Of a stretch of 64,000 bases of DNA, positions 6,068 to 42,248 are shown piece by piece. The stretch lies in sequence record LC739534.1. The stretch is one strand, 5' to 3'. A program made the translations under genes and the position numbers. Position 1 is the stretch's first letter. Every line of letters starts with the position of its first letter. This DNA is from Escherichia phage phiWec181. A model generated the notes under the pieces. That model ran no database searches and was not told where the DNA came from. It saw nothing but the letters and a program-made list of their open reading frames with translations.

Positions 6068-6073
6068 TAAAAC

Positions 6074-6096: not shown

Positions 6097-6112
6097 CACA
6101 GAGGAGATTATT

Positions 6113-6550: not shown

Positions 6551-7043
6551 TCGTCCAGAGTCCGATTACTATCCGACTCCGCAAAAAGCGATTAACTCGT
6601 TATTTAGCATTATTGATTTTAAAAATTTGAAAGAGGAAGGATTTACATTTGCAGAACCGTGTAAAGGACAAGCAGCGGCTATTTACCGTCACTTCCCTGA
6701 AGGTTCTCAGTATTGTGAGCTTGAAGAAGGTAAAGATTATTTTAGTCACGTATGGGAAAATCGTCCCGACATTATAATCACTAACCCCCCGTTCAAGCTG
6801 GCATTAGAGTTCTTGGAAAAGAGCTTGAAAGAAGCAGACGTATCAGTCTACCTGCTTCGCTTGGGATTCCTTGAGTCAAAGAAACGTCGAGCGTTTCATC
6901 AAGAAAACCCACCTACGAATTTGATTGTACTCTCCGAACGTCCTTCGTTCGTAGCGGGTGGAACAGATAAGACAGCGTATGCTTGGTACGTATACGATCC
7001 AAAACAAATTTTGGGTCTAACTCAACCATTTTATTTCGTTTAA
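6534..7043 (+). CDS. putative DNA N6-adenine methyltransferase (small, NPPF motif)
   Basis: IITNPPF (motif IV (D/N)PP(F/Y)) preceded by FAEPCKG AdoMet-binding-like motif and DYYPTP. Confidence 0.5.
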   Translation: MALSYDRPESDYYPTPQKAINSLFSIIDFKNLKEEGFTFAEPCKGQAAAIYRHFPEGSQYCELEEGKDYFSHVWENRPDIIITNPPFKLALEFLEKSLKEADVSVYLLRLGFLESKKRRAFHQENPPTNLIVLSERPSFVAGGTDKTAYAWYVYDPKQILGLTQPFYFV

Positions 7044-7053
7044 GGAGCACACT

Positions 7054-7290
7054 ATGGCTAAATTTATTATGACCGTTTCTATTGATTTTGATGATGAGGA
7101 CGGAGGCATTAACTTAGGTATTGCTCAGAACCTGGAAGGGGATTTGAACCCGACAGAAGCAGCTATGGCGGTATTCTTTAAAGATGCCATAACAGCCACA
7201 GCAACGCATTCTGCAAATCAAACTGTAGATTACGGTAGCATGGTTCAAGCCTTGGTTGATGCTCAAAACGGTGAAGATTGGGATGATTAA
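7054..7290 (+). CDS. hypothetical protein (78 aa)
   Basis: ORF with SD AAGGAG upstream. Confidence 0.45.
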   Translation: MAKFIMTVSIDFDDEDGGINLGIAQNLEGDLNPTEAAMAVFFKDAITATATHSANQTVDYGSMVQALVDAQNGEDWDD

Positions 7291-7493
7291 TGGCTTACAA
7301 TTATTATTGCGTTTACGCAAATGAAGCAAAGAAAGGCGACACTGGCACTAATGTCTATGCAGAATCAGAAATACATGCAAAAGAAATTGGTGCGATCCTT
7401 CTGTCACGTTGGACAGGTGGTAACTATTCTGCTGCGGATTTGTTCGCAGAAATGGATGACACCATCCAAGAAGATACCATCACCACAACCTGA
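7290..7493 (+). CDS. hypothetical protein (67 aa)
   Basis: ORF start overlaps previous stop (TAATG). Confidence 0.4.
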   Translation: MAYNYYCVYANEAKKGDTGTNVYAESEIHAKEIGAILLSRWTGGNYSAADLFAEMDDTIQEDTITTT

Positions 7494-7515
7494 TATTGCT
7501 TGAAGTAGTTGGTAC

Positions 7516-7545
7516 TCTCCTTGTTTCGGCAAGGAGGGTATTTTT
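7516..7545 (+). terminator. rho-independent terminator
   Basis: CTCCTTG-TTTCGG-CAAGGAG hairpin followed by GGTATTTTT. Confidence 0.5.
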
Positions 7546-7557
7546 AAGGAGGAAATT

Positions 7558-7749
7558 ATGCAGGAGAATGAAGAGATAGTTGTTAAAAAGTTCCCGACAC
7601 GTACACAGGCAGTCAACTTTGCCTCTGATTTGCTTTTGGATGTGGAAGGAGTTCTCATTAGACATGAAGGGGATTCCTGGAATGTCTCTTATAATGTAAA
7701 CAGATCAATTATATATTTAGGAGAAGAGAACTTCTCTCGTATAGAGTGA
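7558..7749 (+). CDS. hypothetical protein (63 aa)
   Basis: SD AAGGAGG 5 nt upstream of ATG. Confidence 0.45.
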   Translation: MQENEEIVVKKFPTRTQAVNFASDLLLDVEGVLIRHEGDSWNVSYNVNRSIIYLGEENFSRIE

Positions 7750-7763
7750 TCGAAGGAGCAATT

Positions 7764-8336
7764 ATGCGTTCTACTTACACAGGTAAGATTAATTCTGGTA
7801 TCATTTTAGCAGCAGCAGGAATCATCAGCAAAACTTTCAAAGTGGCAAACCTACCAGAGTGTGTAGATTTTGACCACGTATTCAATCCATTAAATCCTTC
7901 TCGTTGTGTTGTTCGTAGCAACGTTGAGAATCCAAATGAGAACTTGTTTTATGTAACATCACCTTCACAAAGTATTCTAAACCAAGTGGAGGCTAAAATT
8001 ATTACCGAAGGTAGTTATTTCTCATTGCTACCTTGTAAATCGGTGGAGATTGAAGATAGTATCACCTTCGCAAATAACTTGGTCTTGACCATGTTCATGG
8101 TTTCTGATAAAGACTGTGGAGACGATATGGTTTTAGCTGTAAGGAATGTTTATGACACATTGGGTATTGCTTATAGCTGTAAGTTGTGCGATGATTATAA
8201 ATCTTGTTCAGACTTTTACATAAATGGTGTTCGGGTATGCCGTGTTGAATCCTACTGGGTGCAAGACACATACATAACAGTAGCGAACGTGATCAATGAA
8301 CCTATGTTCAGCCACGCTTTAGCGTTAATCATTTGA
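7764..8336 (+). CDS. hypothetical protein (190 aa), Cys-rich C-terminal half
   Basis: SD GAAGGAG upstream of ATG 7764; ORF-track start 7746 lacks SD. Confidence 0.5.
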   Translation: MRSTYTGKINSGIILAAAGIISKTFKVANLPECVDFDHVFNPLNPSRCVVRSNVENPNENLFYVTSPSQSILNQVEAKIITEGSYFSLLPCKSVEIEDSITFANNLVLTMFMVSDKDCGDDMVLAVRNVYDTLGIAYSCKLCDDYKSCSDFYINGVRVCRVESYWVQDTYITVANVINEPMFSHALALII

Positions 8337-8346
8337 GGAGGAAGGA

Positions 8347-8676
8347 ATGGAAATTACTACAGAACAGGCTCTTATCGACGAAGGGCGTAAAATCTTAGAG
8401 AAGCATTTGGGAGATATACATCAAACCCCTGGCTACTTAGGGTGGCGCATGGTTGAAGCTGTAGATTTCCTTCCTCGTACAAAACAAGACGTTGAAATGC
8501 GTTCTCTGTTCTTGCTTGTCAAAGTAGACGGGGATACGCCTTTCAAACTCGCAGCTTCACACATTGAGAAGGTGGAGGAGAAAGCTTATTCAGAGTTTGC
8601 CGAACTCGTATTACAGGAGGATCTCGAAGGGAAGGTAAACATTTTTATTTTTCTGGATTTTGAGGAGGAGATATGA
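8347..8676 (+). CDS. hypothetical protein (109 aa)
   Basis: SD GGAGGAAGGA upstream. Confidence 0.5.
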   Translation: MEITTEQALIDEGRKILEKHLGDIHQTPGYLGWRMVEAVDFLPRTKQDVEMRSLFLLVKVDGDTPFKLAASHIEKVEEKAYSEFAELVLQEDLEGKVNIFIFLDFEEEI

Positions 8677-9410
8677 TTTTATATAAAGAGATTACCGTGG
8701 AGCAGGATCAAGACCTCTTCATCATCGGGGACTTACATGGTTGCTACGATCTTTACTTGAAAGGTAAGAATTATCTTGGTATCCGAGATACAGATGTGGT
8801 TGTGTCTCTCGGAGATTTGACAGATCGCGGTAAACAAAACTTCAAATGTGTTGTGGAATTTACACGCAAAGAGAATCGTTATGCGCTTTGTGGTAATCAC
8901 GAAGATATGATGATTAAAGGCTTACTGGAAGGGGATCGTCGTTACTACGAATGTTGGTATCAGAACGGTGGTCATACAGTGTTGGCAGAATGTGATGAAG
9001 AAGGCTCTACATTACTTGCTACGATGGTCGAGGACAACCCTGTGGTTTTGGTTGTGAATTACCGAGGTATGAAGTTAGGGTTTATTCATGGCGGATATCC
9101 TTCCTCTTTTGAATATATTCCGCTGACAGACATACCGCACCTACGTATGAACAAAGCAAGAGAGGCTACTTTTGCTGAAGCTTTGATGTGGGATCGTGAC
9201 ATGGTGGAGTGTGCTAAAGAAGGTATGAAACTTCCGGTTGTTATGGGTGTTGATTATGTGTTTCACGGGCACTCTTATGTGAAAGAACCTTTGATCAATG
9301 CTAATCGTGTTTATATGGACACTGGGTCTGTTTTCAATAACAACTTAACGTTTGCCTATTTTGATGCAGACGGTGGACTTCAGTTTTATTCAACTTTACA
9401 GGAGGATTAA
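8673..9410 (+). CDS. Ser/Thr protein phosphatase (calcineurin-like metallophosphoesterase)
   Basis: Ordered GDLHGC, GDLTDRG and GNHE metallophosphatase motifs. Confidence 0.75.
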   Translation: MILYKEITVEQDQDLFIIGDLHGCYDLYLKGKNYLGIRDTDVVVSLGDLTDRGKQNFKCVVEFTRKENRYALCGNHEDMMIKGLLEGDRRYYECWYQNGGHTVLAECDEEGSTLLATMVEDNPVVLVVNYRGMKLGFIHGGYPSSFEYIPLTDIPHLRMNKAREATFAEALMWDRDMVECAKEGMKLPVVMGVDYVFHGHSYVKEPLINANRVYMDTGSVFNNNLTFAYFDADGGLQFYSTLQED

Positions 9411-9703
9411 TGTATAAAATTACAATCGTAGAATCTGTGGGTGAGATTCGTAAAGAAATTATTCTGGAGACGGAAGATCTGGAACTGGTACGTGAAATCA
9501 TAATTGGTAAGAATGTAGACAAGGTGGAGTCGGACGCACCCAACCTGATGATCGATGACCAATATGCAGAATTTCGTCGTATTTTTGAGGAAGAAAGGAA
9601 GAAGTGGGGCAAAGAACCAAACGTTTTTCGTCCTTATAATCCGTATCCTTCTGGTGATCCGTGGATCATGACTAACAGAAACCCGTTTGAAATAACCTGT
9701 TGA
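9410..9703 (+). CDS. hypothetical protein (97 aa)
   Basis: ORF overlapping previous stop (TAATG). Confidence 0.45.
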   Translation: MYKITIVESVGEIRKEIILETEDLELVREIIIGKNVDKVESDAPNLMIDDQYAEFRRIFEEERKKWGKEPNVFRPYNPYPSGDPWIMTNRNPFEITC

Positions 9704-9711
9704 GGTGGCCT

Positions 9712-10290
9712 ATGAGCAACCTATTTTACACAGGCGTGGGAAGTCGAGAGATAACCCACGAAGAATGGGATTTAATGGTCGCTGTAGCAAAGTGGTTGGC
9801 TAACTGTGGTTTTACTTTACGTTCAGGTAATGCAAACGGTAGTGACTCTGCTTTCGAAACAGGTGTGGAAGAATCCAAAAACAAATCTCTCAAGGAGATT
9901 TATATCCCTTGGGAGAAGTTTGAAGGCAATGATATTCCAGGTGAGAAAATAGTTCTTGCTAAACCTGACAGTATGAACTATGCTATCAGTCTCCAGTGGA
10001 TAAAGGATATTCATCCGGCATTTGATAAATTGAAACAAGGTGCACGTAAATTGCATCAACGTAACGTTCATCAGGTGTTGGGACAAGATCTGGAGCATCC
10101 AATTCCTTCTTTGTTTTTACTGGCTTGTTCCAAAGAAGATAAGAAGGGAGACGTTATGGGTGGAACACGGACGGCGTGGCTCATCGCTAAAGCTAATAAC
10201 GTTCCATGTTTTAACTTACGTGGTAAAACAAAGGAAGAACTTTATGCTTTTCTTAAACCGTTGGTCAAGGGGGCAATCAGTGGCAATTAA
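9712..10290 (+). CDS. SLOG/DprA-like Rossmann-fold protein (putative nucleotide-binding)
   Basis: GVGSREIT...LRSGNANGSDSAFETG resembles the DprA/Smf GxR...SGxAxGxDxAAH core; assignment tentative. Confidence 0.4.
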   Translation: MSNLFYTGVGSREITHEEWDLMVAVAKWLANCGFTLRSGNANGSDSAFETGVEESKNKSLKEIYIPWEKFEGNDIPGEKIVLAKPDSMNYAISLQWIKDIHPAFDKLKQGARKLHQRNVHQVLGQDLEHPIPSLFLLACSKEDKKGDVMGGTRTAWLIAKANNVPCFNLRGKTKEELYAFLKPLVKGAISGN

Positions 10291-10804
10291 GTTAAATCGT
10301 GCAAACGTAGGTAATCGTTTTAACCTTAGCCGTATAAACGAGGACGTAGATGTTACAGCAGATATTGAAAAAATCATGCAGGGTATTGTCCATCACGGTT
10401 TGCGTTTTGCCAGGGATTTGGTAATCTTCCGTTATGACGGAGAAGATGATCGTTCAAAGAATGATGGGATTATCTTCGTAGATAAAGATTTAACCCAAGC
10501 AGATATTGAACAGATCAACCGTTATTTTATTGGTGTAGGGGATCTTCAAGACACGCAGCTTGCACGTATGGCAGAAATTCTGGCGAATAAATTGTTGCAA
10601 GATATCGGAAAAGTTCTTGACAAAAATCCAAAACATGTTATAGTGACTATCCACAAAATGAGTTTTATTAAGTATCTTAACAAACCTGGTAAACTGGGTT
10701 ATGGATGGATACGCACAAGTGGACCACAAACCACTCTCGAAACCGAGATGTGCTATACAATTGAAGAAGTAAAACGTGAGGAGGAAGAGAATGGCGGAAT
10801 TTAA
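10280..10804 (+). CDS. hypothetical protein (~174 aa), GTG start
   Basis: In frame with ORF-track 10040..10804; GTG at 10280 preceded by AAGGGGG and placed just before the upstream stop; longer version would overlap upstream gene. Confidence 0.4.
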   Translation: MAIKLNRANVGNRFNLSRINEDVDVTADIEKIMQGIVHHGLRFARDLVIFRYDGEDDRSKNDGIIFVDKDLTQADIEQINRYFIGVGDLQDTQLARMAEILANKLLQDIGKVLDKNPKHVIVTIHKMSFIKYLNKPGKLGYGWIRTSGPQTTLETEMCYTIEEVKREEEENGGI

Positions 10805-11782: not shown

Positions 11783-11808
11783 AACCCGCTTCGGCGGGTT
11801 TTTTATTG
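11783..11808 (+). terminator. rho-independent terminator
   Basis: AACCCGC-TTCG-GCGGGTT hairpin followed by TTTTTATT. Confidence 0.65.
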
Positions 11809-11816
11809 TGTGAGTG

Positions 11817-17102: not shown

Positions 17103-17123
17103 AGTAATCTCCTTTGTTCAGAT

Positions 17124-17148
17124 ATGAAAAAACCCGCCGAAGCGGGTT
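17124..17148 (-). terminator. rho-independent terminator
   Basis: AACCCGC-TTCG-GCGGGTT hairpin followed by TTTTTT on minus strand. Confidence 0.6.
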
Positions 17149-21196: not shown

Positions 21197-21336
21197 CGTC
21201 CGTTACCATTCAATTGATCACGTAGCTTTTCTGCATCTCGTTTCTGTGGGAACGTGGCAACAGAGACATTGAATTCATTAACAACAGAAAAGGACTTGTC
21301 CAGGTTTTCACGGATAGTAAAAGGTTTCTTGCTCAT
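21193..21336 (-). CDS. small protein (47 aa)
   Basis: MSKKPFTIRENLDKSF...; SD GGAGGGAGA upstream; ATGA overlaps at both ends; not in ORF track. Confidence 0.4.
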   Translation of the reverse strand: MSKKPFTIRENLDKSFSVVNEFNVSVATFPQKRDAEKLRDQLNGNGR

Positions 21337-21686
21337 AATCTCCCTCCATCTTTAAGACGATTTTTAACCCAGCGTAGACGATCTGGATCTGTGTGTTGTG
21401 AAGCGTTTTCCGAATCCAGTAAATAAGCCTTTCTTCCGAACGGATAGGTTTCACATAACCCTGCTTCAATAAACTGATTATACATCTCTTTCATAGTGTT
21501 TTCGATTAAATACCAGTTACCTTCTGGAAGGTCTAAATCATACAACCAATACTCAAGATTACCACACAACCCTACAGAAGAGCTAAACACGTCTTCCATA
21601 ACAAGGCCCGTCTCGTCTCCATTTTCAGCCCAAGATAACCAAGCCTGATAAAAATCTAAAAGTAATTTACTTGATGCAATCTTCAT
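21333..21686 (-). CDS. paralog family A member
   Basis: Family pattern L..FY..WL.W...GLC...PF(N/G)...RL.WVK.R; SD AGGAGAG upstream of ATG 21686. Confidence 0.6.
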   Translation of the reverse strand: MKIASSKLLLDFYQAWLSWAENGDETGLVMEDVFSSSVGLCGNLEYWLYDLDLPEGNWYLIENTMKEMYNQFIEAGLCETYPFGRKAYLLDSENASQHTDPDRLRWVKNRLKDGGRL

Positions 21687-21688
21687 GC

Positions 21689-21874
21689 TCACTCTCCTAC
21701 ACTTTCTGGTGTGCCATCCCAAGCACCTAAGACTTCTTTCAGGTGTGCACGGGGTTCTTTAAAATACTCCTCCATTTTATCCAGAAGATCGTCTGTGTTT
21801 GGGCTGTATCCCAACATCCCACGTAAAACTCTTTCTTCTTGCAAGACCAACCATCTATGATAGCTTCGAATCAT
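21689..21874 (-). CDS. small protein (61 aa)
   Basis: SD GGAGG upstream of ATG 21874; ORF-track start 22006 lacks SD. Confidence 0.4.
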   Translation of the reverse strand: MIRSYHRWLVLQEERVLRGMLGYSPNTDDLLDKMEEYFKEPRAHLKEVLGAWDGTPESVGE

Positions 21875-22289
21875 AATATTCCTCCAAGAGTTTCTCAATT
21901 CTCTGAACGGTCTTAGTATCCCAATAAACCTTATTAAAGTCAAGTGTTCCATGTGCATTTCTTTTTGTTTCGAAGTAATAACCACCTTCCCGCTCCAAGC
22001 GATCACGGATCACTTCTATAAGATGATCCTTACCTATCTGCGTCAAACAATAATCATACTCTCCTTTTAAGAGATCTATAGAAGGTTGACGGTTATCTCC
22101 AACCTGGGAAATCTTCCAATTTACCAATGATCCTTGTATACCAACGTCTGTCTGCTTCACAGCGAAGCCTTTGGCACCCCAGCTACCCAACGTTACCACT
22201 AACAGGGCTTCTCCCGTCAGAGAGCGATTAAGCGTGTCGCTTCGGGGTTCACTTAAAGTTGAAAACCATTTAAGAATCTTTTTAAACAT
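21855..22289 (-). CDS. hypothetical protein (144 aa)
   Basis: SD GAGAGGAG upstream of ATG 22289. Confidence 0.5.
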   Translation of the reverse strand: MFKKILKWFSTLSEPRSDTLNRSLTGEALLVVTLGSWGAKGFAVKQTDVGIQGSLVNWKISQVGDNRQPSIDLLKGEYDYCLTQIGKDHLIEVIRDRLEREGGYYFETKRNAHGTLDFNKVYWDTKTVQRIEKLLEEYYDSKLS

Positions 22290-22309
22290 TATATGCTCCT
22301 CTCGTTCAA

Positions 22310-22344
22310 CATGCACAAACAATAACACCCTCCAAAGAGGGTGT
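22310..22344 (-). terminator. putative rho-independent terminator
   Basis: ACACCCTC-TTTG-GAGGGTGT hairpin followed by T-rich run on minus strand. Confidence 0.45.
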
Positions 22345-22350
22345 CAATGA

Positions 22351-22560
22351 TTAATCGATCACAAAAAACGTAGCGTTCAAACGTCTGAATGTCGCAGGGC
22401 TATATCCATGATCACACTCTTCAATGAACTGATCTGTAGTCTGATCGTAACTATAATACTGATCATTTTGGAAATGGAAGGACGCACAGAACAAATCATT
22501 TCCTACAGTCCACACTGCCACAAAATTCTTACCGAACGGATAACCTTCAGCTACTTTCAT
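22351..22560 (-). CDS. hypothetical protein (69 aa)
   Basis: SD AGAGGAGGGAGA upstream of ATG 22560. Confidence 0.45.
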   Translation of the reverse strand: MKVAEGYPFGKNFVAVWTVGNDLFCASFHFQNDQYYSYDQTTDQFIEECDHGYSPATFRRLNATFFVID

Positions 22561-22571
22561 TCTCCCTCCTC

Positions 22572-22841
22572 TTACCAAGAAACATACATAGAATACACAA
22601 AATCATTGCAGTCTGTCGTAAACGTCGCACTGCAACCTTGAGATCTGAATTTATCACAAATCCCGCGTACAATCGAAGCTTGTAGTTCTTTACCTTTCGG
22701 TAGACCTAAAGCTTTTACTGGGTTCTGAATCGTCGTGCTGTAGTAACCCCCTTCTGCTGCCGTTGTAATGAGGATTTCTGCTCGTTTGATATATTCAAAG
22801 TTCACAGAGTCAGCCAAAGCGTGTAAAGAATATGCATCCAT
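22572..22841 (-). CDS. hypothetical protein (89 aa)
   Basis: SD GAGGAGG upstream. Confidence 0.5.
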   Translation of the reverse strand: MDAYSLHALADSVNFEYIKRAEILITTAAEGGYYSTTIQNPVKALGLPKGKELQASIVRGICDKFRSQGCSATFTTDCNDFVYSMYVSW

Positions 22842-22851
22842 TATAACCTCC

Positions 22852-23187
22852 TCAAGAACGATCGAGTTTCATTAAAAATACAATCATAGCTGCACGCAGT
22901 GGTTTATCGTCTTCACGGGACGGTACACCTTCTGTCTTCGCAAGCCAACCGCGAGGAAAACCATCTTCCCCTGTTACAGGGCTGATACAAATCCTATGTT
23001 TTACTATGATAGCCCAAGCATCTGCTGGATCATTGCAGTAATCATACCAAGTGTAATTGCCGTTGCAGTCATTCCCCACTGATCGTCCATCTGCATTGTG
23101 CGGATAACCTAAAGGCTTGACACCGTGGACTGCTGCAAACACACGCTTGTTGATTTCAAAATCACTCATTACTCCATATTCTGTCAT
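22852..23187 (-). CDS. hypothetical protein (111 aa)
   Basis: SD AAGGAGAAAG upstream. Confidence 0.5.
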   Translation of the reverse strand: MTEYGVMSDFEINKRVFAAVHGVKPLGYPHNADGRSVGNDCNGNYTWYDYCNDPADAWAIIVKHRICISPVTGEDGFPRGWLAKTEGVPSREDDKPLRAAMIVFLMKLDRS

Positions 23188-23513
23188 GCTTTCTCCTTAT
23201 CTTTGGATACTGGAAGGATATTGATCATAACAACCCCATCATATCCGTAGGTATCGTTGATTGTAGTTTCAACTTCACGTATGTCGGCTAAAGATGGAGG
23301 CCAATCTGTGAATTGCACATCAATATTACCTGTCCCGATAAAATTACCTTCTTCTGGTCTGTAGTTGTATACAAACACAGCATCGTAACGAAACTCCTTC
23401 TGTTTGTTACGCTTCTTAAAAGTGCGGTCTAAGGCATAGATGCTTCCTATGACACATACCGCTACAGCAACAACAACAATGTTAAAATAGAGTTCTTGTA
23501 AAATTGCGCTCAT
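23184..23513 (-). CDS. membrane-anchored protein (109 aa)
   Basis: N-terminal hydrophobic segment NIVVVAVAVCVIGSIYAL; SD AAAGGGGG upstream. Confidence 0.5.
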   Translation of the reverse strand: MSAILQELYFNIVVVAVAVCVIGSIYALDRTFKKRNKQKEFRYDAVFVYNYRPEEGNFIGTGNIDVQFTDWPPSLADIREVETTINDTYGYDGVVMINILPVSKDKEKA

Positions 23514-23515
23514 TG

Positions 23516-23845
23516 TTATTTACCCCCTTTCAGTTTTGATTTAACCCATGCCAACCGTTCTTTGTTCATATGTTGCGTGCCGTGCTCATAATCCTGCATA
23601 TAAGCTAAGTCACCAAATGGGTACAAGGTGTCTTGGAAATCTTTGAAAAGCATCTCTGCAAATGCTTCGTTAACTTCGTCAATTTCTTTTAATGAAAACC
23701 CTTGTTCCAGTAACCAGTAAGACAAAGAGTCGCAAAGCCTAACAAGTGTGCTGAAAGGTTTGACATTCTCTCTTTTCGGAGCCACTTTAGCCCAGGCTAA
23801 CCATGCCTTAAGAAATTGTTGGATAATCACTTCGTTCTTTGTCAT
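23516..23845 (-). CDS. paralog family A member
   Basis: Family A pattern (FLKAWLAW...YPFG...RLAWVKSKL); SD AGGAG upstream of ATG 23845. Confidence 0.6.
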   Translation of the reverse strand: MTKNEVIIQQFLKAWLAWAKVAPKRENVKPFSTLVRLCDSLSYWLLEQGFSLKEIDEVNEAFAEMLFKDFQDTLYPFGDLAYMQDYEHGTQHMNKERLAWVKSKLKGGK

Positions 23846-23853
23846 TTTAGCTC

Positions 23854-24528
23854 CTATTTGATGTTCAGTTTGTTGAGCAGACGTTGAACCGTATAAGGGT
23901 GCCATGTGGTACTGCCACGAACGGTTTCAATTTTCTCTTCAGTAAAGATCTCTGCAATTCGAGTCAGAGATGCTCCTGCTTTCCTCATTAACGTCACTTT
24001 ATCACGAAGCTTCTCTGCATACAAGACACTTTTATCATTTTTTCGAGGTTGTTTGTAGTCTTGACGTGATTCTTTATACTTAGGGGAAGCAGATCCTAAA
24101 AGAACTCCTTTGCTCTTAGCTACTGCCAAACCTTTTTTGATACGATCTGCCATACCGCGAACTTCCTGTTCGGCGAGAACAGATAAAAGCTGGATAACCA
24201 TCTTATCCGCATCTGGCATAATGGCGATCTTAACGTCGATCATTTCCAGCAAGATTGCTACCGAGGCGTTGTTACGACCTAAACGGTCCACTTTAGCTAC
24301 CAGGAGGGTTGCTCCGGTAGCTTTACACATCTCAACAGCCTTGACAAGTTCTTTACGTTGCTTCCAGTCACCTTTACCTGAATAGAATTCAGAAAACTCT
24401 CCGATCACTTCAGCCTCCGGCACAGACTCCAAGAAGTAACGGATATCGTTCTCCTGACTCTGCATACCATACTGGGCTTCGCCTTTCTTCTGTTTGGACA
24501 AACGGCTGTAAACAACAAACTTTTTCAT
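23854..24528 (-). CDS. serine recombinase (resolvase/invertase family)
   Basis: N-terminal VVYSRLS...Q with catalytic Ser, VDRLGR motif, C-terminal HTH-like SLTRIAEIF; SD GAGGAG 6 nt upstream of ATG 24528. Confidence 0.7.
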   Translation of the reverse strand: MKKFVVYSRLSKQKKGEAQYGMQSQENDIRYFLESVPEAEVIGEFSEFYSGKGDWKQRKELVKAVEMCKATGATLLVAKVDRLGRNNASVAILLEMIDVKIAIMPDADKMVIQLLSVLAEQEVRGMADRIKKGLAVAKSKGVLLGSASPKYKESRQDYKQPRKNDKSVLYAEKLRDKVTLMRKAGASLTRIAEIFTEEKIETVRGSTTWHPYTVQRLLNKLNIK

Positions 24529-24538
24529 GATCAACTCC

Positions 24539-24745
24539 TCAATCGTTATTAGGCTTCCATTTTACAAACTTGAAGCAGTTATTGTCAAGGAATTTATTGG
24601 CATCTTTTTCCTGTTTCCAAACGGTGCATTGTTCTTTAAGGGCTATCTGTTCATTCTGCACATCTGATACCACATCAGCAAGGAGGATCAGAAATCCCAA
24701 AAAGACCAACATCAATAACAGATTAAAGAAAGTTTGAAAACTCAT
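24539..24745 (-). CDS. small membrane protein (68 aa)
   Basis: Hydrophobic FNLLLMLVFLGFLILL; SD GGGAGG upstream of ATG 24745. Confidence 0.45.
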   Translation of the reverse strand: MSFQTFFNLLLMLVFLGFLILLADVVSDVQNEQIALKEQCTVWKQEKDANKFLDNNCFKFVKWKPNND

Positions 24746-24996
24746 GCGTCCTCCCATTTGATCCACAGAATCATTTCTTCAACGTAAACCTCTTTACCTT
24801 TGTTATTGATGAAAGTGTATTCTATGAACTCCGCTGTATACTTTTTGTTGTATTGCTCCGCTGCTGGGATCGGACACTTTGTCATACGTGTCTCAACCCA
24901 TTGACGATGAATCGTTGCCTTGTTTTTGGGGTCAAACGGGTGTAAATAGTGTGGTTCCCCACCCTGACTTTGCCCCATCTTATTTTTCTTTGCCAT
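24742..24996 (-). CDS. hypothetical protein (84 aa)
   Basis: SD GGAGGAGG upstream of ATG 24996. Confidence 0.4.
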   Translation of the reverse strand: MAKKNKMGQSQGGEPHYLHPFDPKNKATIHRQWVETRMTKCPIPAAEQYNKKYTAEFIEYTFINNKGKEVYVEEMILWIKWEDA

Positions 24997-25324
24997 GCTG
25001 CACCTCCTCCAGACGGTCATACACCCAAGCAAGACGATCGAAGTTTTTGTGTTGGGTGCCGGACTTCTTCTCAATCCAATAACAAGGAATCCAACCTGAC
25101 AGATCCCACTCGCCATCGAACGGATAGTTCCATTCTAAACCTTCCGCTTCAAACTGCTCTACCATTTCATCAGAAAGGGAAATATACAAATCTTGGTCTT
25201 CCCCGCAATACACTTCCACTGCATGACACAAACCGCAAGCTTTGATGTTTTCGTGCGGATCTTGGCCCATAGCCTGATCCAACCACCACTCATAAAACTC
25301 CAGTAAAGCTTCACTTGATCTCAT
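24980..25324 (-). CDS. paralog family A member
   Basis: Family A pattern (LLEFYEWWL...GLC...YPFDG...RLAWVYDRL); SD GGGGAGGGGAAG upstream. Confidence 0.6.
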   Translation of the reverse strand: MRSSEALLEFYEWWLDQAMGQDPHENIKACGLCHAVEVYCGEDQDLYISLSDEMVEQFEAEGLEWNYPFDGEWDLSGWIPCYWIEKKSGTQHKNFDRLAWVYDRLEEVQHGKEK

Positions 25325-25697
25325 TTTCTTCCCCTCCCCCTTTTCCAATAAGCGGCGAAGCCGCGATCATCGACTTATAGACAACTTCGGCTGTTCGGGT
25401 TAGCCCCGTCCAGTCCTTCGCTGCCTCCAACATTTCTGGGGTAGGCTCTTTCGGGACCAAGACATACCCTTCTGGGACACACATCCCACTCTCTTTCTTT
25501 TCGGCTTCTTCCGACATAACTTGCCACACTCCATAGCTGCAATTCTCGAACAAACAATAGAGTTCAGATCCTTCATCATCCACGACAATGAAACAGTTCT
25601 CATCTGCTACTTTGGCATTATAGATCCGACCTATGGTCAAATAGTCTCGGACATTAATAAACTTAGAGGCAAGAAACTTCACACGAATGTTTTTCAT
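25311..25697 (-). CDS. hypothetical protein (128 aa)
   Basis: SD CGGAG upstream. Confidence 0.5.
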   Translation of the reverse strand: MKNIRVKFLASKFINVRDYLTIGRIYNAKVADENCFIVVDDEGSELYCLFENCSYGVWQVMSEEAEKKESGMCVPEGYVLVPKEPTPEMLEAAKDWTGLTRTAEVVYKSMIAASPLIGKGGGEENEIK

Positions 25698-25933
25698 TTC
25701 TTAAACTCCGAAAAGCAACCCAAAGAGATGACCCCGCCATTATAGACGATAGCAAACTGGCACCCTGTCTTTGTGTCTGTGATGATGTAATCTAAAGCCC
25801 CAGTCATGCCAGTTTGAACAAAGCGATCCTTGGTTACAACTTTTGAGTCCGAGAAGCCGTTAACTTTCGGCACAGTGTCTGCCATAACAGTAGGAGTCAC
25901 CAGAAACAATGCGATCAGTAATGCCTTTTTCAT
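25694..25933 (-). CDS. small secreted protein (79 aa) with signal peptide
   Basis: MKKALLIALFLVTPTVMA signal-like N-terminus; SD TGGAGGG upstream. Confidence 0.5.
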   Translation of the reverse strand: MKKALLIALFLVTPTVMADTVPKVNGFSDSKVVTKDRFVQTGMTGALDYIITDTKTGCQFAIVYNGGVISLGCFSEFKK

Positions 25934-25944
25934 AAACCCTCCAG

Positions 25945-26259
25945 TTAGCCTTGAAATGAATTGCGACGACCAATACGGGCACAGCGATCACCTTCATAAG
26001 AGGTGAAATCCAGACTCACTCGGAAGCCAGGGTGGGTATCAGAGATCCCCACATTCTTCACCCACATCTCGAAACTGCCGATATGTAAGGTCATAATGTT
26101 TACATACCATTCCAGCGTCACTTCTGTGCCGTCTACGCCTGTGATGTAGAAATCACGAGCGAAATGGGTGTCGTGCTTCTGTTTCTGACGCTCATACTTA
26201 GCGATTGCACCTTTCTCAACAGCCGCTTTCAGGATCACTTCTAACTCTTCTATTTGCAT
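25945..26259 (-). CDS. hypothetical protein (104 aa)
   Basis: SD AAAGGAGAGAGA upstream. Confidence 0.5.
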   Translation of the reverse strand: MQIEELEVILKAAVEKGAIAKYERQKQKHDTHFARDFYITGVDGTEVTLEWYVNIMTLHIGSFEMWVKNVGISDTHPGFRVSLDFTSYEGDRCARIGRRNSFQG

Positions 26260-27150: not shown

Positions 27151-27477
27151 TCAACCAATTATTTCTTCTGCTATACGTTCTTTTACCCAGTTCACACGAT
27201 CCACATTCAAATGACAACGGCTTCTTTCCGCTTCTAAGGTGTACTTTCCAAAATTACTGTTGAAAGGCAACACCATAACCAAATCTTTGCGGTAGAACTG
27301 CTCATGCATTTCATCCAGTACAGGTTCGTATCGTTCGCTTTCCCCCATATCGTAAAAATCATAGAGGTTCGAGCACAAACCTGTGCAACGGGTGAACGGT
27401 TCACCTTCAGGAGCACCAGCTTCCAACCATGCCAAATACGTGCGGTAAAATGTTAATAGTTCTTCGCTCATTTCCAC
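27151..27477 (-). CDS. paralog family A member
   Basis: Family A pattern (LLTFYRTYLAWL...GLC...LPFNSN...HLNVDRVNWVKERI); SD AAGGAGAG upstream. Confidence 0.6.
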   Translation of the reverse strand: MEMSEELLTFYRTYLAWLEAGAPEGEPFTRCTGLCSNLYDFYDMGESERYEPVLDEMHEQFYRKDLVMVLPFNSNFGKYTLEAERSRCHLNVDRVNWVKERIAEEIIG

Positions 27478-27682: not shown

Positions 27683-27910
27683 TTATTCCTCCATCTTAAA
27701 CCATTGAGGGAATACTTTACGGAAGACACGAGTTGCTTCCAAAAGGAATTCCAATTCTTTTTCCCGATCTGCGTTCCAACCGTGTACTTTAACATTGATC
27801 GCCAGTGCATCAGCGCGCTGACTCAATGCTTGGCAAATCGGATCGCGCAACACTACCGCATCATAAAACTGACAAACAGCTTCAAGTTCATACCAATTAT
27901 AAGCAGCCAT
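27683..27910 (-). CDS. hypothetical protein (75 aa)
   Basis: SD AGAGGAGAA upstream. Confidence 0.45.
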   Translation of the reverse strand: MAAYNWYELEAVCQFYDAVVLRDPICQALSQRADALAINVKVHGWNADREKELEFLLEATRVFRKVFPQWFKMEE

Positions 27911-28236
27911 TATTCATTCTCCTCTGCAATACGATCTTTAACCCAATTAATCCTGTCCACGTTCAGGTGACAGGCATCTGCATCTGACTCTAAAACATAT
28001 GCATCGTAGTTCTCATTGAAAGGGAGTTCTTGACTCAACCCTTTATAGTGGAACTGTGCGTGCATCTCATCTGACAAGGTTATTATAATGAGATTGAAGC
28101 CATCCCTGTGCACATAATCGAACAAGTTGGCACACAAACCCACACTTGGCAGAAACGGTCTGCCATAAGGAGCACCATTTTCAATCCATGCCAGATACTT
28201 TTTGTAAAACTTCATCAACTCTTCACTTGTTTTCAT
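27910..28236 (-). CDS. paralog family A member
   Basis: Closest relative of 27151..27477 (…GLCANL…HLNVDRINWVKDRIAEE); SD GAGGTGG upstream. Confidence 0.6.
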   Translation of the reverse strand: MKTSEELMKFYKKYLAWIENGAPYGRPFLPSVGLCANLFDYVHRDGFNLIIITLSDEMHAQFHYKGLSQELPFNENYDAYVLESDADACHLNVDRINWVKDRIAEENE

Positions 28237-37080: not shown

Positions 37081-37133
37081 GATAATCTCCTCTCTTGGTT
37101 TCATGACAAACATCCTAATTCTCAACGAGGAAC

Positions 37134-37162
37134 ATCTTACGATCAATCCTCGGCAATTACAA
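37134..37162 (-). promoter_or_regulatory. putative sigma70-type promoter for the three tandem family-A genes
   Basis: Minus strand TTGTAA, 17-nt spacer, TAAGAT (same -10 as array promoters). Confidence 0.35.
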
Positions 37163-37437
37163 TTCATTTATCATCGCTTTTCCCTATCAATTATTCTATA
37201 TATACCTGTTATTTTTGACACCCCCTTTGGTCAAATATTAATCGGCAAAATATCTGGGGGTACTCTATAAAATGATGCCCCCTGTTCCTGCAATTTATCG
37301 AGGAGAATATCATTCGACTATCATCGGCAAAGAGACAGAAAAGCCTTTGGTAGCAAGGATTTATGGCGAGTACGTCAGGACTGCTTAACGCGAATTTTTC
37401 GGCCCCTCCACTTCTGCGAGCCGGAATCCTCAAATAT

Positions 37438-37470
37438 CAATGAGAATAATTATCATTATCATTCGTATTC
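37438..37470. promoter_or_regulatory. Fur-box-like palindromic operator motif
   Basis: AATGAGAATAATTATCATTATCATT: 16/19 identity to Fur consensus GATAATGATAATCATTATC; related copies at 52026..52140. Confidence 0.35.
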
Positions 37471-37859
37471 AATAACTTAGGCGATCTTTTCCCCTGCTAT
37501 AAGGTCGGGCCTAACTTAACCATCACTTTTCAAACAATCCTTTATCAATCAACTACTTAACAACCTAAACATATGATTACTACGGTGTAAAGGTGCCGCC
37601 CATAACAGACTACCTATAAAATAGATGAGAATGATTATTATTCAGACAATTCTTACAACAAATCGACCAACAAATCAAGAATTTTCTTATTTTTATTCAC
37701 GTTTAAGAGAACGTGCTCAACATTCCGCTACGCGTAACGGTTCGCCCCCAAAAGATTAGCCTTTGCTTTCCTGTATATTTATACACTATGTGCAAGGTGT
37801 CGCTACACGCTCGCCTTGCCCCGCATAATCCTTCACTGTGCTAATGATTTCATAGTGCA

Positions 37860-38060
37860 ACAATAACACTTATTATTATATTACGCTTAATTATTCTTAC
37901 ATACAATGCTAATAATAAGCCAGCGTAATTAGTGTAAGCGTAATACGCTTGCAATAATTGCAAGCTACATAATCACAAGAAATAACTATCACCGATAGTT
38001 ATGATTGTGGGGGTGTAGTTGGCTTATTATTAGCTCGCTACGTGTCCGGCGTAGCGTGCT
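37860..38060. repeat. cluster of four distinct perfect palindromes in non-coding DNA
   Basis: AAGCGTA-a-TACGCTT, GCTTGCAAT-a-ATTGCAAGC, ATAACTATC-acc-GATAGTTAT, CGCTACG-N7-CGTAGCG within ~120 bp. Confidence 0.45.
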
Positions 38061-38099
38061 AATGATGAGGCTTGGAATGATTCATTTTGCAATTATTAC

Positions 38100-38480
38100 A
38101 GTCTTCACTATTTTGATAATAGTTGTTCTTTTAATGGTTTCATTTGTTATCGTTAGTTAGTTGGTTGTTTTGTAGTGTTATCGTTATCTTGCTTAGTATT
38201 CATCACGGTTTGATTGTTTGTCGTTATCAATCATCTTTCTATTATTCCTTTGATTATGATTAGTTTGCTTATTGTTTTAGGTTGTTGGTTGGTTAGTTGT
38301 TGCGAACTATTATCAACATTATAGTTATGCACTTATATTGCATAGATACGCAAGGGTAGATGATAATGGTTATCATTGCACTGGAAAGGAAGAAAACAGC
38401 CTTTTTCGGTTGTTTGTTGTTGGTTGTTGATCTATTTTAACCGCTCTAAATAGCTCTCTAACAGCCTGTTTACCTGGGGT
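38100..38480. repeat. G+T-rich low-complexity tract with reiterated GTTATC / GGTTGG motifs (iteron-like)
   Basis: Multiple GTTATC(G/A) and GTTGTTGG repeats; no ORF with SD on either strand. Confidence 0.4.
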
Positions 38481-38583
38481 GTATGGTTATTCGTTTGCTG
38501 GTTGATTAGCTCGATACCGCGATTTATTCAGTTTTGTTCTGTGTCGGTTTTTCATAGGCGGAATCTATCAACATTGTTCGGGC

Positions 38584-38612
38584 AAAAAGAAAGGGCGCTT
38601 GGTGCGCCCCTT
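38584..38612 (-). terminator. rho-independent terminator
   Basis: AAGGGGCGC-ACCAA-GCGCCCTT hairpin followed by TTTCTTTTT on minus strand, just after CDS 38626..39045. Confidence 0.55.
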
Positions 38613-38625
38613 GTTTTGTTGTCGA

Positions 38626-39865: not shown

Positions 39866-39885
39866 GGTGTTATTCCTATATTAGA

Positions 39886-39942
39886 CGGGAAACATTCCCG
39901 CCCTACGTGATAAATAATAATATAAGCGTGATCCGGTGTCAA
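39886..39942 (-). promoter_or_regulatory. promoter + 5'-proximal GC stem-loop cassette (PeSL-like), hairpin class IV
   Basis: Minus strand TTGACA, 17 nt, TATTAT, 10 nt, GGGAATGTTTCCC hairpin, then CDS 39632..39865. Confidence 0.5.
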
Positions 39943-40077
39943 TAGGTAGAATTGTAAAGATTTGATAGTTTGTCTCTTTGTTGTTTTGTTGTTTGATAGA
40001 TGTTAGCTATCAATATATAGCGGGGTCGTCCGGTGATTACCTCCCCCGTTGCCAGTGCCGCCCGTTCAATAAGCATA

Positions 40078-40107
40078 ACAAAAAACAGGACAAAAGCAAG
40101 CCCTGTT
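40078..40107 (-). terminator. rho-independent terminator
   Basis: ACAGGGCTTGCTTTTGTCCTGT hairpin followed by TTTTTTGTT on minus strand after CDS 40117..40320. Confidence 0.55.
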
Positions 40108-40116
40108 TTGTAAAGA

Positions 40117-40320
40117 TTAGATGATCTGCATATCCTCCACGATAATTTCTAATTTCCAAACAAGATGATCTAAGCTCCCTGATAAAAATGATTCCGATAC
40201 ATAACCGCCATCGGACACCGTAGCAAGGATCTCGCCATTTGCTTGCTCTTTGATTTGAACATCCAGGCGGTTAGCCTTTGCTTTGTTCAGGACGGCGATC
40301 AGGCGGTTAGCTGTAGTCAT
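40117..40320 (-). CDS. hypothetical protein (67 aa)
   Basis: SD GAAAGGAAAA upstream; loosely similar to CDS 41063..41299. Confidence 0.5.
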   Translation of the reverse strand: MTTANRLIAVLNKAKANRLDVQIKEQANGEILATVSDGGYVSESFLSGSLDHLVWKLEIIVEDMQII

Positions 40321-40340
40321 GGTGTTTTCCTTTCAGTTGT

Positions 40341-40398
40341 GAGCGGCACCATTGCCGCCCTACGTGATACATCTTACACTATCAGATACATTGTGCAA
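40341..40398 (-). promoter_or_regulatory. PeSL-like cassette, hairpin class I
   Basis: TTGCAC, ~16 nt, TAAGAT, 10 nt, GGCGGCA-ATGG-TGCCGCT hairpin ~20 nt before ATG of CDS 40117..40320. Confidence 0.5.
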
Positions 40399-40404
40399 GC
40401 TATT

Positions 40405-40596
40405 TTAGATCTCGTCACCTATATAATCAGATCTGTTCTTCTCTGTCATACGTTTTAATAATTCTTGCATATCGCTTATAGCTTGCAATGTGTCTTCTTC
40501 CAGGCTTGAATCCACATAGTCAGGATCATTCTTTACCTTGCTATGGTTATGATAGCGCAACGCTGCTAATACCTTTCTAACTTGTTCCACGTTCAT
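40405..40596 (-). CDS. hypothetical protein (63 aa)
   Basis: ORF; weak SD AAGGG. Confidence 0.45.
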   Translation of the reverse strand: MNVEQVRKVLAALRYHNHSKVKNDPDYVDSSLEEDTLQAISDMQELLKRMTEKNRSDYIGDEI

Positions 40597-40605
40597 GATG
40601 TACCC

Positions 40606-40725
40606 TTAAAATAGTGTGCCGATGGAAGATAGCAGGTCACTAATAACCAGGACCAGATCTACTATCACATATCTAATCAGGAAGGGGATTAGCGCCAGCG
40701 TCGCTACTATGATCCCCATTGTCAT
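40606..40725 (-). CDS. small hydrophobic peptide (39 aa)
   Basis: MTMGIIVATLALIPFLIRYVIVDLVLV...; SD GAGAAAGG upstream; not in ORF track. Confidence 0.4.
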   Translation of the reverse strand: MTMGIIVATLALIPFLIRYVIVDLVLVISDLLSSIGTLF

Positions 40726-40736
40726 GATTACCTTTC

Positions 40737-41027
40737 TCATTGTTGGCGGTTTACATAAGCTTTACCGTTTACGGTCATCGGTATGGCCTCAAGGTCTGGA
40801 TCTTCCTTAAGGTCGCGTGCAAGCTCACCGCACCGGACACCCTCGAATCCGTGGTATTCTGTTTCCCCGTTCTTAAAAGTTTTAGCGGCAAGGCATAGGC
40901 GATAATTAACACCGATCCGGTTTACTGCGTTGATATCGGTTAACGTGATCGATTCCGGCAAATCGTTAGCCATTACAGGCGCGTTAATACCAACAACCAG
41001 GGCAACTACTGCGATCATCTTTTTCAT
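40737..41027 (-). CDS. small secreted protein (96 aa) with signal peptide
   Basis: MKKMIAVVALVVGINAPVMA signal-like N-terminus; SD GGAAGAGGA upstream. Confidence 0.5.
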   Translation of the reverse strand: MKKMIAVVALVVGINAPVMANDLPESITLTDINAVNRIGVNYRLCLAAKTFKNGETEYHGFEGVRCGELARDLKEDPDLEAIPMTVNGKAYVNRQQ

Positions 41028-41062
41028 GTGTCTATCCTCTTCCTATTGCGTTTAATGGGGCG

Positions 41063-41299
41063 TTATTGATTGATGTTATGATGAAAGTTATTTTCTTCAA
41101 CGGCTTTTAAAATAAAGGCTGTTACCGCTTTCGTGTCTACTTGTTCGAACGTATCAGAATAAGCCCAATAATAATCATCCCCTACTTTAGGCGGGTAAAC
41201 CTGGACAAGGAGATCGCCACCTGGTTGATCTATAAGCTCAACATGTAAGCCGGATGATTCAGCGGTTTTAACGGCGTTTAATACTGTTGCAATACTCAT
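41063..41299 (-). CDS. hypothetical protein (78 aa)
   Basis: SD GAAAGGAAAAG upstream. Confidence 0.5.
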   Translation of the reverse strand: MSIATVLNAVKTAESSGLHVELIDQPGGDLLVQVYPPKVGDDYYWAYSDTFEQVDTKAVTAFILKAVEENNFHHNINQ

Positions 41300-41318
41300 A
41301 ATCTTTTCCTTTCTAATG

Positions 41319-41334
41319 TGGGGCGTTGCCGCCC
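41319..41334 (-). promoter_or_regulatory. intergenic GC hairpin without adjacent promoter
   Basis: GGGGCG-GCAA-CGCCCC between CDS 41344..41643 and 41063..41299; no -35/-10 next to it. Confidence 0.3.
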
Positions 41335-41343
41335 CTTTGTTGA

Positions 41344-41643
41344 TTAGATCGCTGTTTCCAGTAGTTCGGCTAACGTCTTACCGCCTGATAGTTGGTCTAA
41401 CGTTTGCTCTTCTGACAAGAAATTAGCGGATATTAAACCGACCTGGTTCCCTTTGTGCCAGTTAGCCTGGCGGGTGATTCCATCCTTTAAGGATTTTACC
41501 GCCATTGTGCAACCATCACCAAATGATTCATTTTTATGGTCCATCACTTCATAAGCGCCCAGCTTGCTGCTGTTAGGCACCATTAACGCGAATACATCAC
41601 CAACAACCAGTTTTTCTACGGTAACAATAGCGATAGTTTCCAT
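41344..41643 (-). CDS. hypothetical protein (99 aa)
   Basis: SD TGAGGAAAAC upstream. Confidence 0.5.
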   Translation of the reverse strand: METIAIVTVEKLVVGDVFALMVPNSSKLGAYEVMDHKNESFGDGCTMAVKSLKDGITRQANWHKGNQVGLISANFLSEEQTLDQLSGGKTLAELLETAI

Positions 41644-41660
41644 TTTGTTTTCCTCATTAT

Positions 41661-41718
41661 CGGCGGCACCATTGCCGCCCTACGTGGTAAATATTATCAC
41701 ACTGGCGATCTGTGTCAA
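41661..41718 (-). promoter_or_regulatory. PeSL-like cassette, hairpin class I
   Basis: TTGACA, 16 nt, TAATAT, 10 nt, GGCGGCA-ATGG-TGCCGCC hairpin, then CDS 41344..41643. Confidence 0.5.
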
Positions 41719-41724
41719 TACTTT

Positions 41725-42111: not shown

Positions 42112-42125
42112 GTTGTGTCTCTCTT

Positions 42126-42230
42126 TTAACCGATACCGTGGGAAGATAGGATCATATTAGCCATAGTTGCAACCACTCCAACCGATAACGCCAGGCCAAC
42201 TACTGCAACCGTGAAAATTTTCTCTAACAT
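42126..42230 (-). CDS. small hydrophobic peptide (34 aa)
   Basis: MLEKIFTVAVVGLALSVGVVATMANMILSSHGIG; SD GAGGGTAG upstream; C-terminus resembles 40606..40725 peptide; not in ORF track. Confidence 0.4.
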   Translation of the reverse strand: MLEKIFTVAVVGLALSVGVVATMANMILSSHGIG

Positions 42231-42248
42231 GATGCTACCCTCATTAAT

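Follow-up and report, generated by a model that had tools for sequence, protein, structure and literature searches.

A conserved small serine recombinase gene with a mosaic DNA-binding tail in Escherichia phage phiWec181 and its relatives

The recombinase gene and its catalytic domain

Phages of the phiWec type are myoviruses of about 150 kb that belong to the genus Phapecoctavirus (Stephanstirmvirinae), a group described as virulent. We analysed a stretch of 64,000 nucleotides from one of them, Escherichia phage phiWec181 (LC739534.1; the whole stretch is hereafter called the window), and a minus-strand open reading frame (ORF) in it does encode a small serine recombinase whose catalytic residues are intact. 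A preliminary description, made from the letters of the window, had recognised such an enzyme by its motifs YSRLS and DRLGR and had set it apart from the large serine integrases, and both points stand; it had also suggested that the enzyme may resolve or invert segments of the surrounding gene array or be the remnant of a mobile element, neither of which is supported by the results given below. The features concerned are as follows (HTH, helix-turn-helix):

23854..24528, minus strand: coding sequence of the small serine recombinase, 224 amino acids, stop codon at 23854-23856 (ORF list, PF00239, PHROG 125, AlphaFold2 model with Foldseek)
24091..24528, minus strand: catalytic domain and helix E, residues 1-146, with the nucleophile S11 and R9, D81, R82, R85, E122 and R129 (alignment)
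23857..24090, minus strand: variable linker and HTH DNA-binding module, residues 147-224 (PF07508 matches in the family; 36% identity to the phAPEC8 type)
24559..24588, minus strand: sigma70-like promoter TTGACA-N18-TAAAAT (11/12), directly upstream of the recombinase and within the 3' end of ORF 24539..24742
7494..7557, plus strand: empty ancestral slot of the recombinase, an intergenic scar (synteny tables, orthologous flanking small proteins, tblastn map)

The gene starts with ATG at 24528 (the mechanically called frame opens two codons earlier, with TTG at 24534) and contains both motifs, YSRLS as Y7-S11 and DRLGR as D81-R85. Residues 5-142 match the Pfam family PF00239 (Resolvase) with E = 6.1e-17 and 62.5 bits (cutoff 23.3), and the protein matches PHROG 125, 'DNA invertase', at 5e-32; NCBIfam assigns it to no named family. 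In an alignment of 29 homologues, with identities down to 30%, residues R9, S11, Q25, D81, R82, R85, E122 and R129 are invariant, and no catalytic serine or arginine is missing. These residues correspond to the catalytic set of gamma-delta resolvase (R8, S10, D67, R68, R71), as can be read also from the alignment to the PDB hit. An AlphaFold2 model of the protein (predicted local distance difference test score, pLDDT, 89.6) finds its best Foldseek matches in the catalytic domains of Sin and gamma-delta resolvase (E ~5e-7) and was aligned by the same program to structures of large serine integrases over about 250 columns. Because the nucleophile and the arginine/aspartate constellation are invariant, retained catalysis is favoured, and the gene product is best explained as an active small serine recombinase of a distinct clade, which would consist of a catalytic domain and one short HTH.

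The C-terminal DNA-binding tail and comparison with known enzymes

The C-terminal HTH had been likened to that of Hin, Gin and the Tn3 enzymes. An HTH is present, in the last 45 or so residues (helices 188-197 and 211-220), but the likeness does not hold: the only profile signal of the tail is to positions 13-50 (of 102) of PF07508 'Recombinase', seen in 19 of the 29 members (best 1.7e-5, query 0.013), and HTH_7, the HTH of Hin and gamma-delta, is absent from the Pfam matches that the 29 members give at E<=0.1. By this measure the tail resembles, and is probably related to, the beginning of the 'recombinase domain' that large serine recombinases carry.

Neither a Hin/Gin/Tn3-type enzyme nor a large integrase is therefore encoded here. 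With Tn3 and gamma-delta resolvase and with Sin, which are the best PDB hits in sequence and fold, the protein shares the catalytic fold and residues, the long helix E and a C-terminal HTH; the match to Tn3/gamma-delta resolvase, however, reaches only E ~1e-5 with about 21-27% identity over the catalytic core, the segment from strand 4 to helix E is shorter, the tail is not detected as HTH_7 and there is no transposon context. The multi-subsite res of Tn3 and gamma-delta, about 120 bp, lies upstream of the resolvase gene; the intergenic DNA in front of the phage gene measures only 10 bp. Unlike Tn3-type transposons, the gene has no linked transposase or flanking terminal repeats in the four flanking ORFs and the repeat searches. 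Hin, Gin, Cin and Pin are likewise phage-encoded small serine recombinases, and many annotations have borrowed the name 'DNA invertase' from them, but the present gene has no adjacent invertible segment, no inverted sites of about 26-34 bp and no linkage to tail-fibre genes, and its DNA-binding domain differs. Its distance from tail-fibre genes had been noted in the preliminary description and is upheld. The large serine recombinases (Bxb1, phiC31, TP901-1) share the catalytic domain, the HTH matches part of their PF07508 domain, and the extended motif after the nucleophile, SKQKKGEAQYGMQSQ, resembles, as we take it, that of these enzymes. Large serine integrases have several hundred residues, with a complete recombinase domain, a zinc ribbon and a coiled coil; the phage protein has 224 amino acids, against 486-596 residues for the integrase chains among the fold hits, lacks the rest of the recombinase domain, gives no signal of a further integrase domain and comes from a virulent phage.

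The tail also differs between close relatives. Compared with the phAPEC8-type protein, the catalytic domain (residues 1-146) is 95% identical and the C-terminal 78 residues are 36% identical; DNA homology to phAPEC8 is restricted to 24095-24598, that is, to the promoter and the catalytic domain, and homology to Citrobacter phage Tr1 to 24104-24528. The present type of tail occurs in five phage records, in Tr1 at 50% and, as a weak match of 37%, in Klebsiella phage 05F01, and in the family as a whole the tail has generally diverged more rapidly than the catalytic core. This makes the DNA-binding tail a mosaic, and target specificity has accordingly been replaced between phages that are otherwise close. 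Given such replacement, the target is either a linked site on the phage that varies together with the tail or something outside the phage.

Distribution and existing annotation

A tblastn search matched the recombinase in 181 phage records, and in 161 of them the match extends over 80% of the protein or more; the 181 are mostly phages of Phapecoctavirus and Justusliebigvirus, together with related Klebsiella, Vibrio and Shewanella phages. Identity is at least 98% in 5 records, about 75% in some 64 phapecoctaviruses, about 55% in Justusliebigvirus and Serratia phages, about 50% in Klebsiella Stephanstirmvirinae, and 37-49% in Vibrio and Shewanella phages of 129-149 kb; in some isolates of ICP1 it is 34%, over the catalytic domain only. 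A metagenome search agrees, with proteins of about 215-258 amino acids, many of them on contigs of about 150 kb. The 5 kb around the gene are 100% identical to phiWec179 (LC739533.1) and phiWec186 (LC739535.1) and about 93% identical to phiWec188, phiWec190 and the 'Pseudomonas' phage PsgM04F, and 11700-56900 of the window is 100% identical to phiWec186, with indels relative to phiWec179 at 42116-44005.

Labels already attached to the gene include 'putative site-specific recombinase' (a note in the phAPEC8 record), 'resolvase', 'serine recombinase' and 'DNA invertase'. In the literature there is no more on it than a speculation about concatemers (PMC10282059). That the gene exists, and what kind of gene it is in general, was thus already known, and the finding, though real, is largely ordinary: a conserved gene type that had been annotated before, to which a relocation scar and a domain-level mosaic add modest new details.

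Several observations on individual records were made alongside. At least 10 records (e.g. OR352956.1, LR597654.1, MT496970.1, OR062524.1) label the orthologue 'methionine ABC transporter ATP-binding protein', a propagated misannotation. The ICP1 isolate 2017_DRC_32 (MW794143.1, 18717-19472) carries a homologue of 251 amino acids with its own sigma70-like promoter, placed among newly called genes between the former gp30 and gp41, in what may be a variable early region. In phage Schickermooser (MK373788.1, 11303-11955) the gene is 97% identical to that of phAPEC8 overall, the differences being mostly gaps; 19 bases are missing, with several small gaps in the first 240 nucleotides, and the reading frame is destroyed, so that either this viable phage carries a pseudogene or the gaps are a local artefact of sequencing. 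Coliphage-like phapecoctaviruses have also been deposited under unrelated hosts: OR584014.1 'Pseudomonas phage PsgM04F' (93% DNA identity), and MG065650.1 'Campylobacter phage B15' and OP562383.1 'Acinetobacter phage ABPW7' (partial DNA matches of about 85%, with a recombinase orthologue of about 75%), which suggests contaminant isolation or mislabelled hosts.

Ancestral position and relocation

In PaulScherrer (Justusliebigvirus) and the Klebsiella phage phi1_175008 the recombinase gene lies inside a conserved module with the order endolysin, PhoH, one other gene, HslV, one other gene, methyltransferase, two small genes, recombinase, small gene, aminoacyl-tRNA synthetase-like gene, phosphatase, one other gene, DprA-like gene; PaulScherrer has one extra small gene ahead of the phosphatase, and Shewanella phage 1/4 a looser version of the order. 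By synteny and a tblastn map the window has this module too, at about 3100-10300 of the plus strand, but lacking the recombinase. In its place there is a gap of 64 bp between the orthologous small genes 7290..7493 and 7558..7749, where the recombinase's Shine-Dalgarno/hairpin sequence CAAGGAGGGTATT abuts the ribosome-binding site of the next gene, TTTAAGGAGGAAATTATG, and the upstream promoter has decayed. The orphan hairpin within 7494-7557 reads CTCCTTG-TTTCGG-CAAGGAG and covers the Shine-Dalgarno sequence. Compensatory changes distinguish it from its counterpart in PaulScherrer, a hint that the recombinase was under translational control where the gene originally stood.

The gene now stands about 16 kb from this slot, on the opposite strand and within an array of small genes. 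It is 55% identical to that of PaulScherrer, and syntenic orthologues range over 33-84%. The simplest reading is that one vertically inherited gene was cut out at ORF boundaries and moved into the small-gene array in the Phapecoctavirus lineage, and the best explanation of the distribution as a whole is that the recombinase is a vertically inherited gene of Stephanstirmvirinae and related myoviruses of about 130-150 kb. The scar has the size of an ORF and lies at ribosome-binding-site boundaries, which speaks against a transposon remnant and in favour of ordinary shuffling at microhomologies.

Present neighbourhood and promoter

Little space surrounds the recombinase gene at its present place: 10 bp of intergenic DNA separate it from the upstream gene and 8 bp from the downstream one. 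As had been described, it lies between two paralogous genes, 23516..23845 and 24980..25324 (both PHROG 2510); two more genes, 24539..24742 and 24742..25014 (a DUF7202 protein), separate it from the upstream paralogue. The four flanking ORFs scanned with Pfam and PHROG are small phage proteins (PHROG 2510, 15662, 2008/DUF7202) in which no transposase domain was found. Neighbours of the recombinase in related phages are annotated as hypothetical proteins, and no conserved partner gene stands beside it: the downstream genes differ among phiWec179, phAPEC8 and Tr1. The paralogous family comprises five minus-strand genes for proteins of about 110-130 amino acids (21333..21722, 23516..23845, 24980..25324, 27151..27477 and 27910..28236) with the motifs F/Y-x-x-W-L-x-W, L-P-F/Y-P-F and a C-terminal R-x-x-W-V-K-x-R-L; PHROG 2510 was tested for two members, and the other three were assigned by eye from the translations.

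The sigma70-like promoter upstream of the recombinase is the best promoter-like site in 22000-26000, and by eye promoters were also seen directly upstream of the homologues in phAPEC8, PaulScherrer, Shewanella phage 1/4, ICP1, Tr1 and phi1_175008. The recombinase is probably transcribed from this host-type promoter of its own, which, together with the equivalents in homologues, suggests early transcription by host RNA polymerase.

Search for crossover sites and inversion

Imperfect palindromes of 2 x 12 bp with spacers of 0-6 bp were scanned for and compared with a Markov-shuffled expectation, and repeats were searched for in the window and in a composite whole genome made of phiWec179 flanks and the window (the window resembles phiWec186 and the right junction is offset by about 107 bp, so that the composite is approximate outside the window). 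Genome-wide, palindromes with spacers of 0 and 2 bp are near expectation and those with spacers of 4 and 6 bp are about two- to three-fold higher. The preliminary description had proposed a search for paired palindromic crossover sites near the gene; within 6 kb on either side there is no excess of imperfect palindromes, and the sole site is a terminator hairpin at 22320. No inverted or direct repeat pair was found around the gene in the window or the composite; the strongest repeats there belong to terminator hairpins and promoter cassettes, and the record ends overlap by 148 bp. The 70 bp preceding the recombinase hold the promoter only, with no repeated dyads. For the plasmid homologues discussed below, an attempt at a site consensus was uninformative and defined none.

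Alternative arrangements in related genomes, a comparison also proposed earlier, did not appear: over 11700-36600 no inversion isomer was found, the 25 kb around the gene lying on one strand in all 40 records listed, and the only second place among them is in phiWec190, whose match stops at the record end. Compared with PsgM04F there are only two indels in the region compared, neither at the recombinase. Over 32000-56900, which is repeat-rich and spans record ends, many records match at several places.

For one Justusliebigvirus a short direct terminal repeat of 342 bp has been reported (PMC12210895). A site was also sought in the terminal-repeat region of Justusliebigvirus BME3, to which window positions 37082-38625 correspond, but no even-centred dyad was seen: the palindromes there have odd centres and look like operators, and the BME3 record contains internal repeats. 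This part of the window is about 1.5 kb of non-coding DNA inside a long minus-strand gene array, and parts of it are 80-85% identical to the annotated direct terminal repeat or ends of BME3. Its many palindromes include TTGCAATAATTGCAA at about 37949 and ATAACTATC-ACC-GATAGTTAT at about 37983, with AT-rich repeats like Fur boxes in addition, and it may be a genome terminus, a packaging site or an origin. Clusters of near-perfect palindromes, AATGAGAAT-n-ATTCTCATT, stand at the non-coding loci 52027-52360 and 37432-37464 and presumably resemble Fur boxes. Terminator-like hairpins AACCCGCTTCGGCGGGTTTTTT occur in inverted orientation at 11783-11813 and 17118-17148; this pair may bracket the zone where the plus-strand DNA-metabolism module and the minus-strand small-gene array converge.

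Promoter/stem-loop cassettes of the repeat-rich array

The repeat-rich array at 39877-51026, transcribed from the minus strand, contains at least 15 direct copies of a cassette composed of a sigma70-like promoter, a GC stem-loop (core TAGGGCGGCAATGGTGCCGC) and a ribosome-binding site, in that order, with one cassette before each small gene. We take them to resemble the promoter/stem-loop cassettes implicated in the modular shuffling of T4-type phages. The core is identical in phAPEC8, where it is annotated among PHIRE/MEME promoters. As recombinase sites the cassettes were considered and rejected: their core is the same in phages with differing recombinase tails (in phAPEC8 the tail is only 36% identical), and they are therefore unlikely to be its targets.

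The only stretch of difference between the window (here equal to phiWec186) and phiWec179 is 42116-44005. Within it a segment of 341 bp (42275-42617) is present in the window and absent from phiWec179; two cassettes bound it, and the junction falls just 3' of the stem-loop, outside the dyad, which suggests a recent cassette-mediated gain or loss of a gene. The one recent change of the array that was examined therefore needs no help from the recombinase. The proposal that the enzyme resolves or inverts segments of the hyperplastic region is not supported: paired sites were not found around the gene in the window or the composite, isomers were not seen over 11700-36600, and the indel is bounded by cassettes that are unlikely to be its sites.

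A possible role as resolvase or cyclase

We hypothesize, with a probability of roughly 0.35-0.4, that the recombinase is a resolvase or cyclase acting on one site per copy of the phage's own genome. It would work in trans on this cognate site and would convert terminally repeated or multimeric replicating DNA to monomer circles, in the manner of P1 Cre/loxP and of the recombinases that resolve plasmid multimers. A single site per genome unit would make a second one in the monomer sequence unnecessary, and as the tail has been swapped between close relatives the cognate site would probably lie in variable DNA that co-segregates with the tail. Four features favour this hypothesis: the gene's original place in a DNA-metabolism module, an early-type promoter, catalytic residues that are intact and the want of paired sites in the scans described; with neither inverted or paired sites nor inversion isomers, a resolvase with one site per genome fits better than an invertase.

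Full-length relatives of the protein (33-39% identity, covering 96-99% of the query in the hits listed) occur on 103 plasmids, 87 of them non-mobilizable and several only 5-7 kb long. Those annotated as 'recombinase family proteins' on Marinovum pMaD11 and Synechococcus pIITB3_2 align over the full length at 33-39% identity and share the two-part architecture; they differ in having 140-677 bp of non-coding DNA upstream, where the phage gene has none, and in a plasmid rather than a virulent phage as host replicon. In the two small plasmids whose annotation was read the relative is the only annotated recombinase, and pMaD11 also encodes RepA and a ParA-like protein. A further relative, P0072 (40% identity), carries PF00239 and PF07508 and adjoins a Rep3 replication gene. 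From their context the plasmid relatives look like multimer-resolution enzymes. P1 Cre/loxP and RK2 ParA/res have one site per replicon unit and cyclise terminally redundant DNA or resolve multimers; they would be functional analogues by the proposed role only, Cre being a tyrosine recombinase, and neither the palindrome scan nor the repeat searches revealed an equivalent of loxP or res in the phage.

Several points weigh against a resolvase or cyclase. The role of the plasmid homologues in multimer resolution is itself read from their context, and phages that package from concatemers have no obvious need for it. No candidate site was identified, and the target could be anywhere or not on the phage; in the terminal-repeat region of Justusliebigvirus no even-centred dyad site was seen. 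Almost no non-coding DNA lies beside the gene, unlike the arrangements of res and loxP. Finally, the 19 deleted bases of Schickermooser may mean that the gene is dispensable, or may be a sequencing artefact.

Alternative explanations

An unlikely alternative, favoured by the swappable tail, is that the recombinase acts in trans on DNA other than the phage's own (host chromosome, prophage, plasmid, satellite or co-infecting phage) as a weapon of takeover or competition, in which case a fast-evolving, swappable DNA-binding tail would follow changing targets. The early-type promoter and the position within an array of small early genes are consistent with such a role, as are the much faster divergence of the tail than of the catalytic domain, its outright replacement in this lineage (95% versus 36%) and the failure of the searches described above to find a cognate site on the phage. 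The homologue of some ICP1 isolates occupies what may be a variable early region, and ICP1 is reportedly engaged in an arms race with satellites. Rapid evolution of the tail, however, is equally expected with a co-evolving phage-borne site, and the vertical inheritance of the gene, with an ancestral place among DNA-metabolism genes, points to a housekeeping function. No site in the host emerged, no search for one having been made, and we know of no precedent for a recombinase used as a weapon in trans.

That the protein is a DNA invertase of the Hin/Gin kind, flipping a phage segment in the array or elsewhere, at sites that would be very degenerate, to switch expression, seems improbable. The name of PHROG 125, which several GenBank records use, speaks for it, and so does a prophage homologue (41% identical) that adjoins a gene with a T4_baseplate domain. 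Yet no inverted-repeat pair was seen flanking that homologue, none flanks any plausible segment in the window or the composite genome, and HTH_7 was not detected; the palindrome counts within 6 kb and the constant strand of the surrounding 25 kb in the 40 records listed are equally unfavourable, and the ancestral context of the gene is DNA metabolism, not tail fibres.

Just as doubtful is a selfish or decaying remnant of a mobile element, such as a transposon resolvase or an IS-type gene, with no role in the phage. The change of position within the genome, the variable flanks in relatives and the disrupted copy in one isolate would fit a remnant. Against it, the catalytic residues are invariant over deep divergence, neither a transposase domain in the four flanking ORFs nor flanking repeats in the repeat searches were found, and the scar looks like the product of ordinary microhomology shuffling rather than of transposition. 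The preliminary suggestion to this effect is also at odds with the high coverage of the protein in 161 of 181 records, with synteny across genera and with a divergence that matches that of the neighbouring genes and stays within their range.

There is little to recommend the view that the protein acts mainly as a DNA-binding regulator, perhaps by repressing its own promoter, and does not recombine DNA. The recombinase always has its own promoter, by-eye dyads overlie the promoter spacer in Tr1 (TTCTGA-TT-TCAGAA) and in Klebsiella phage phi1_175008 (a 10-bp inverted repeat), and Tn3 and gamma-delta resolvases do repress transcription besides recombining. The dyads are not conserved between phages, however, and the invariant nucleophile with its arginine/aspartate constellation argues for retained catalysis.

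Least probable of all is a retargetable weapon or editing tool whose exchangeable tail would direct it to non-self targets in the host, a prophage, a satellite or a rival phage, or an enzyme of integron-like cassette exchange in the phage's own arrays, the latter version being weakened by cassettes that are identical across differing tails and by the one examined indel junction, which lies outside the dyad.

Significance

A site-specific recombinase is not something that a strictly virulent phage would be expected to need, yet here one has been kept, its catalytic residues intact, across a subfamily and its marine relatives. Screens of therapeutic phages flag such genes as markers of lysogeny, and the conserved status of this enzyme as something other than an integrase helps in interpreting these flags. 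If its site and role were found, for instance in genome cyclisation or multimer resolution, an extra step would be added to the replication cycle of phAPEC8-like phages, and the enzyme might yield a compact recombinase with a naturally swappable DNA-binding module.

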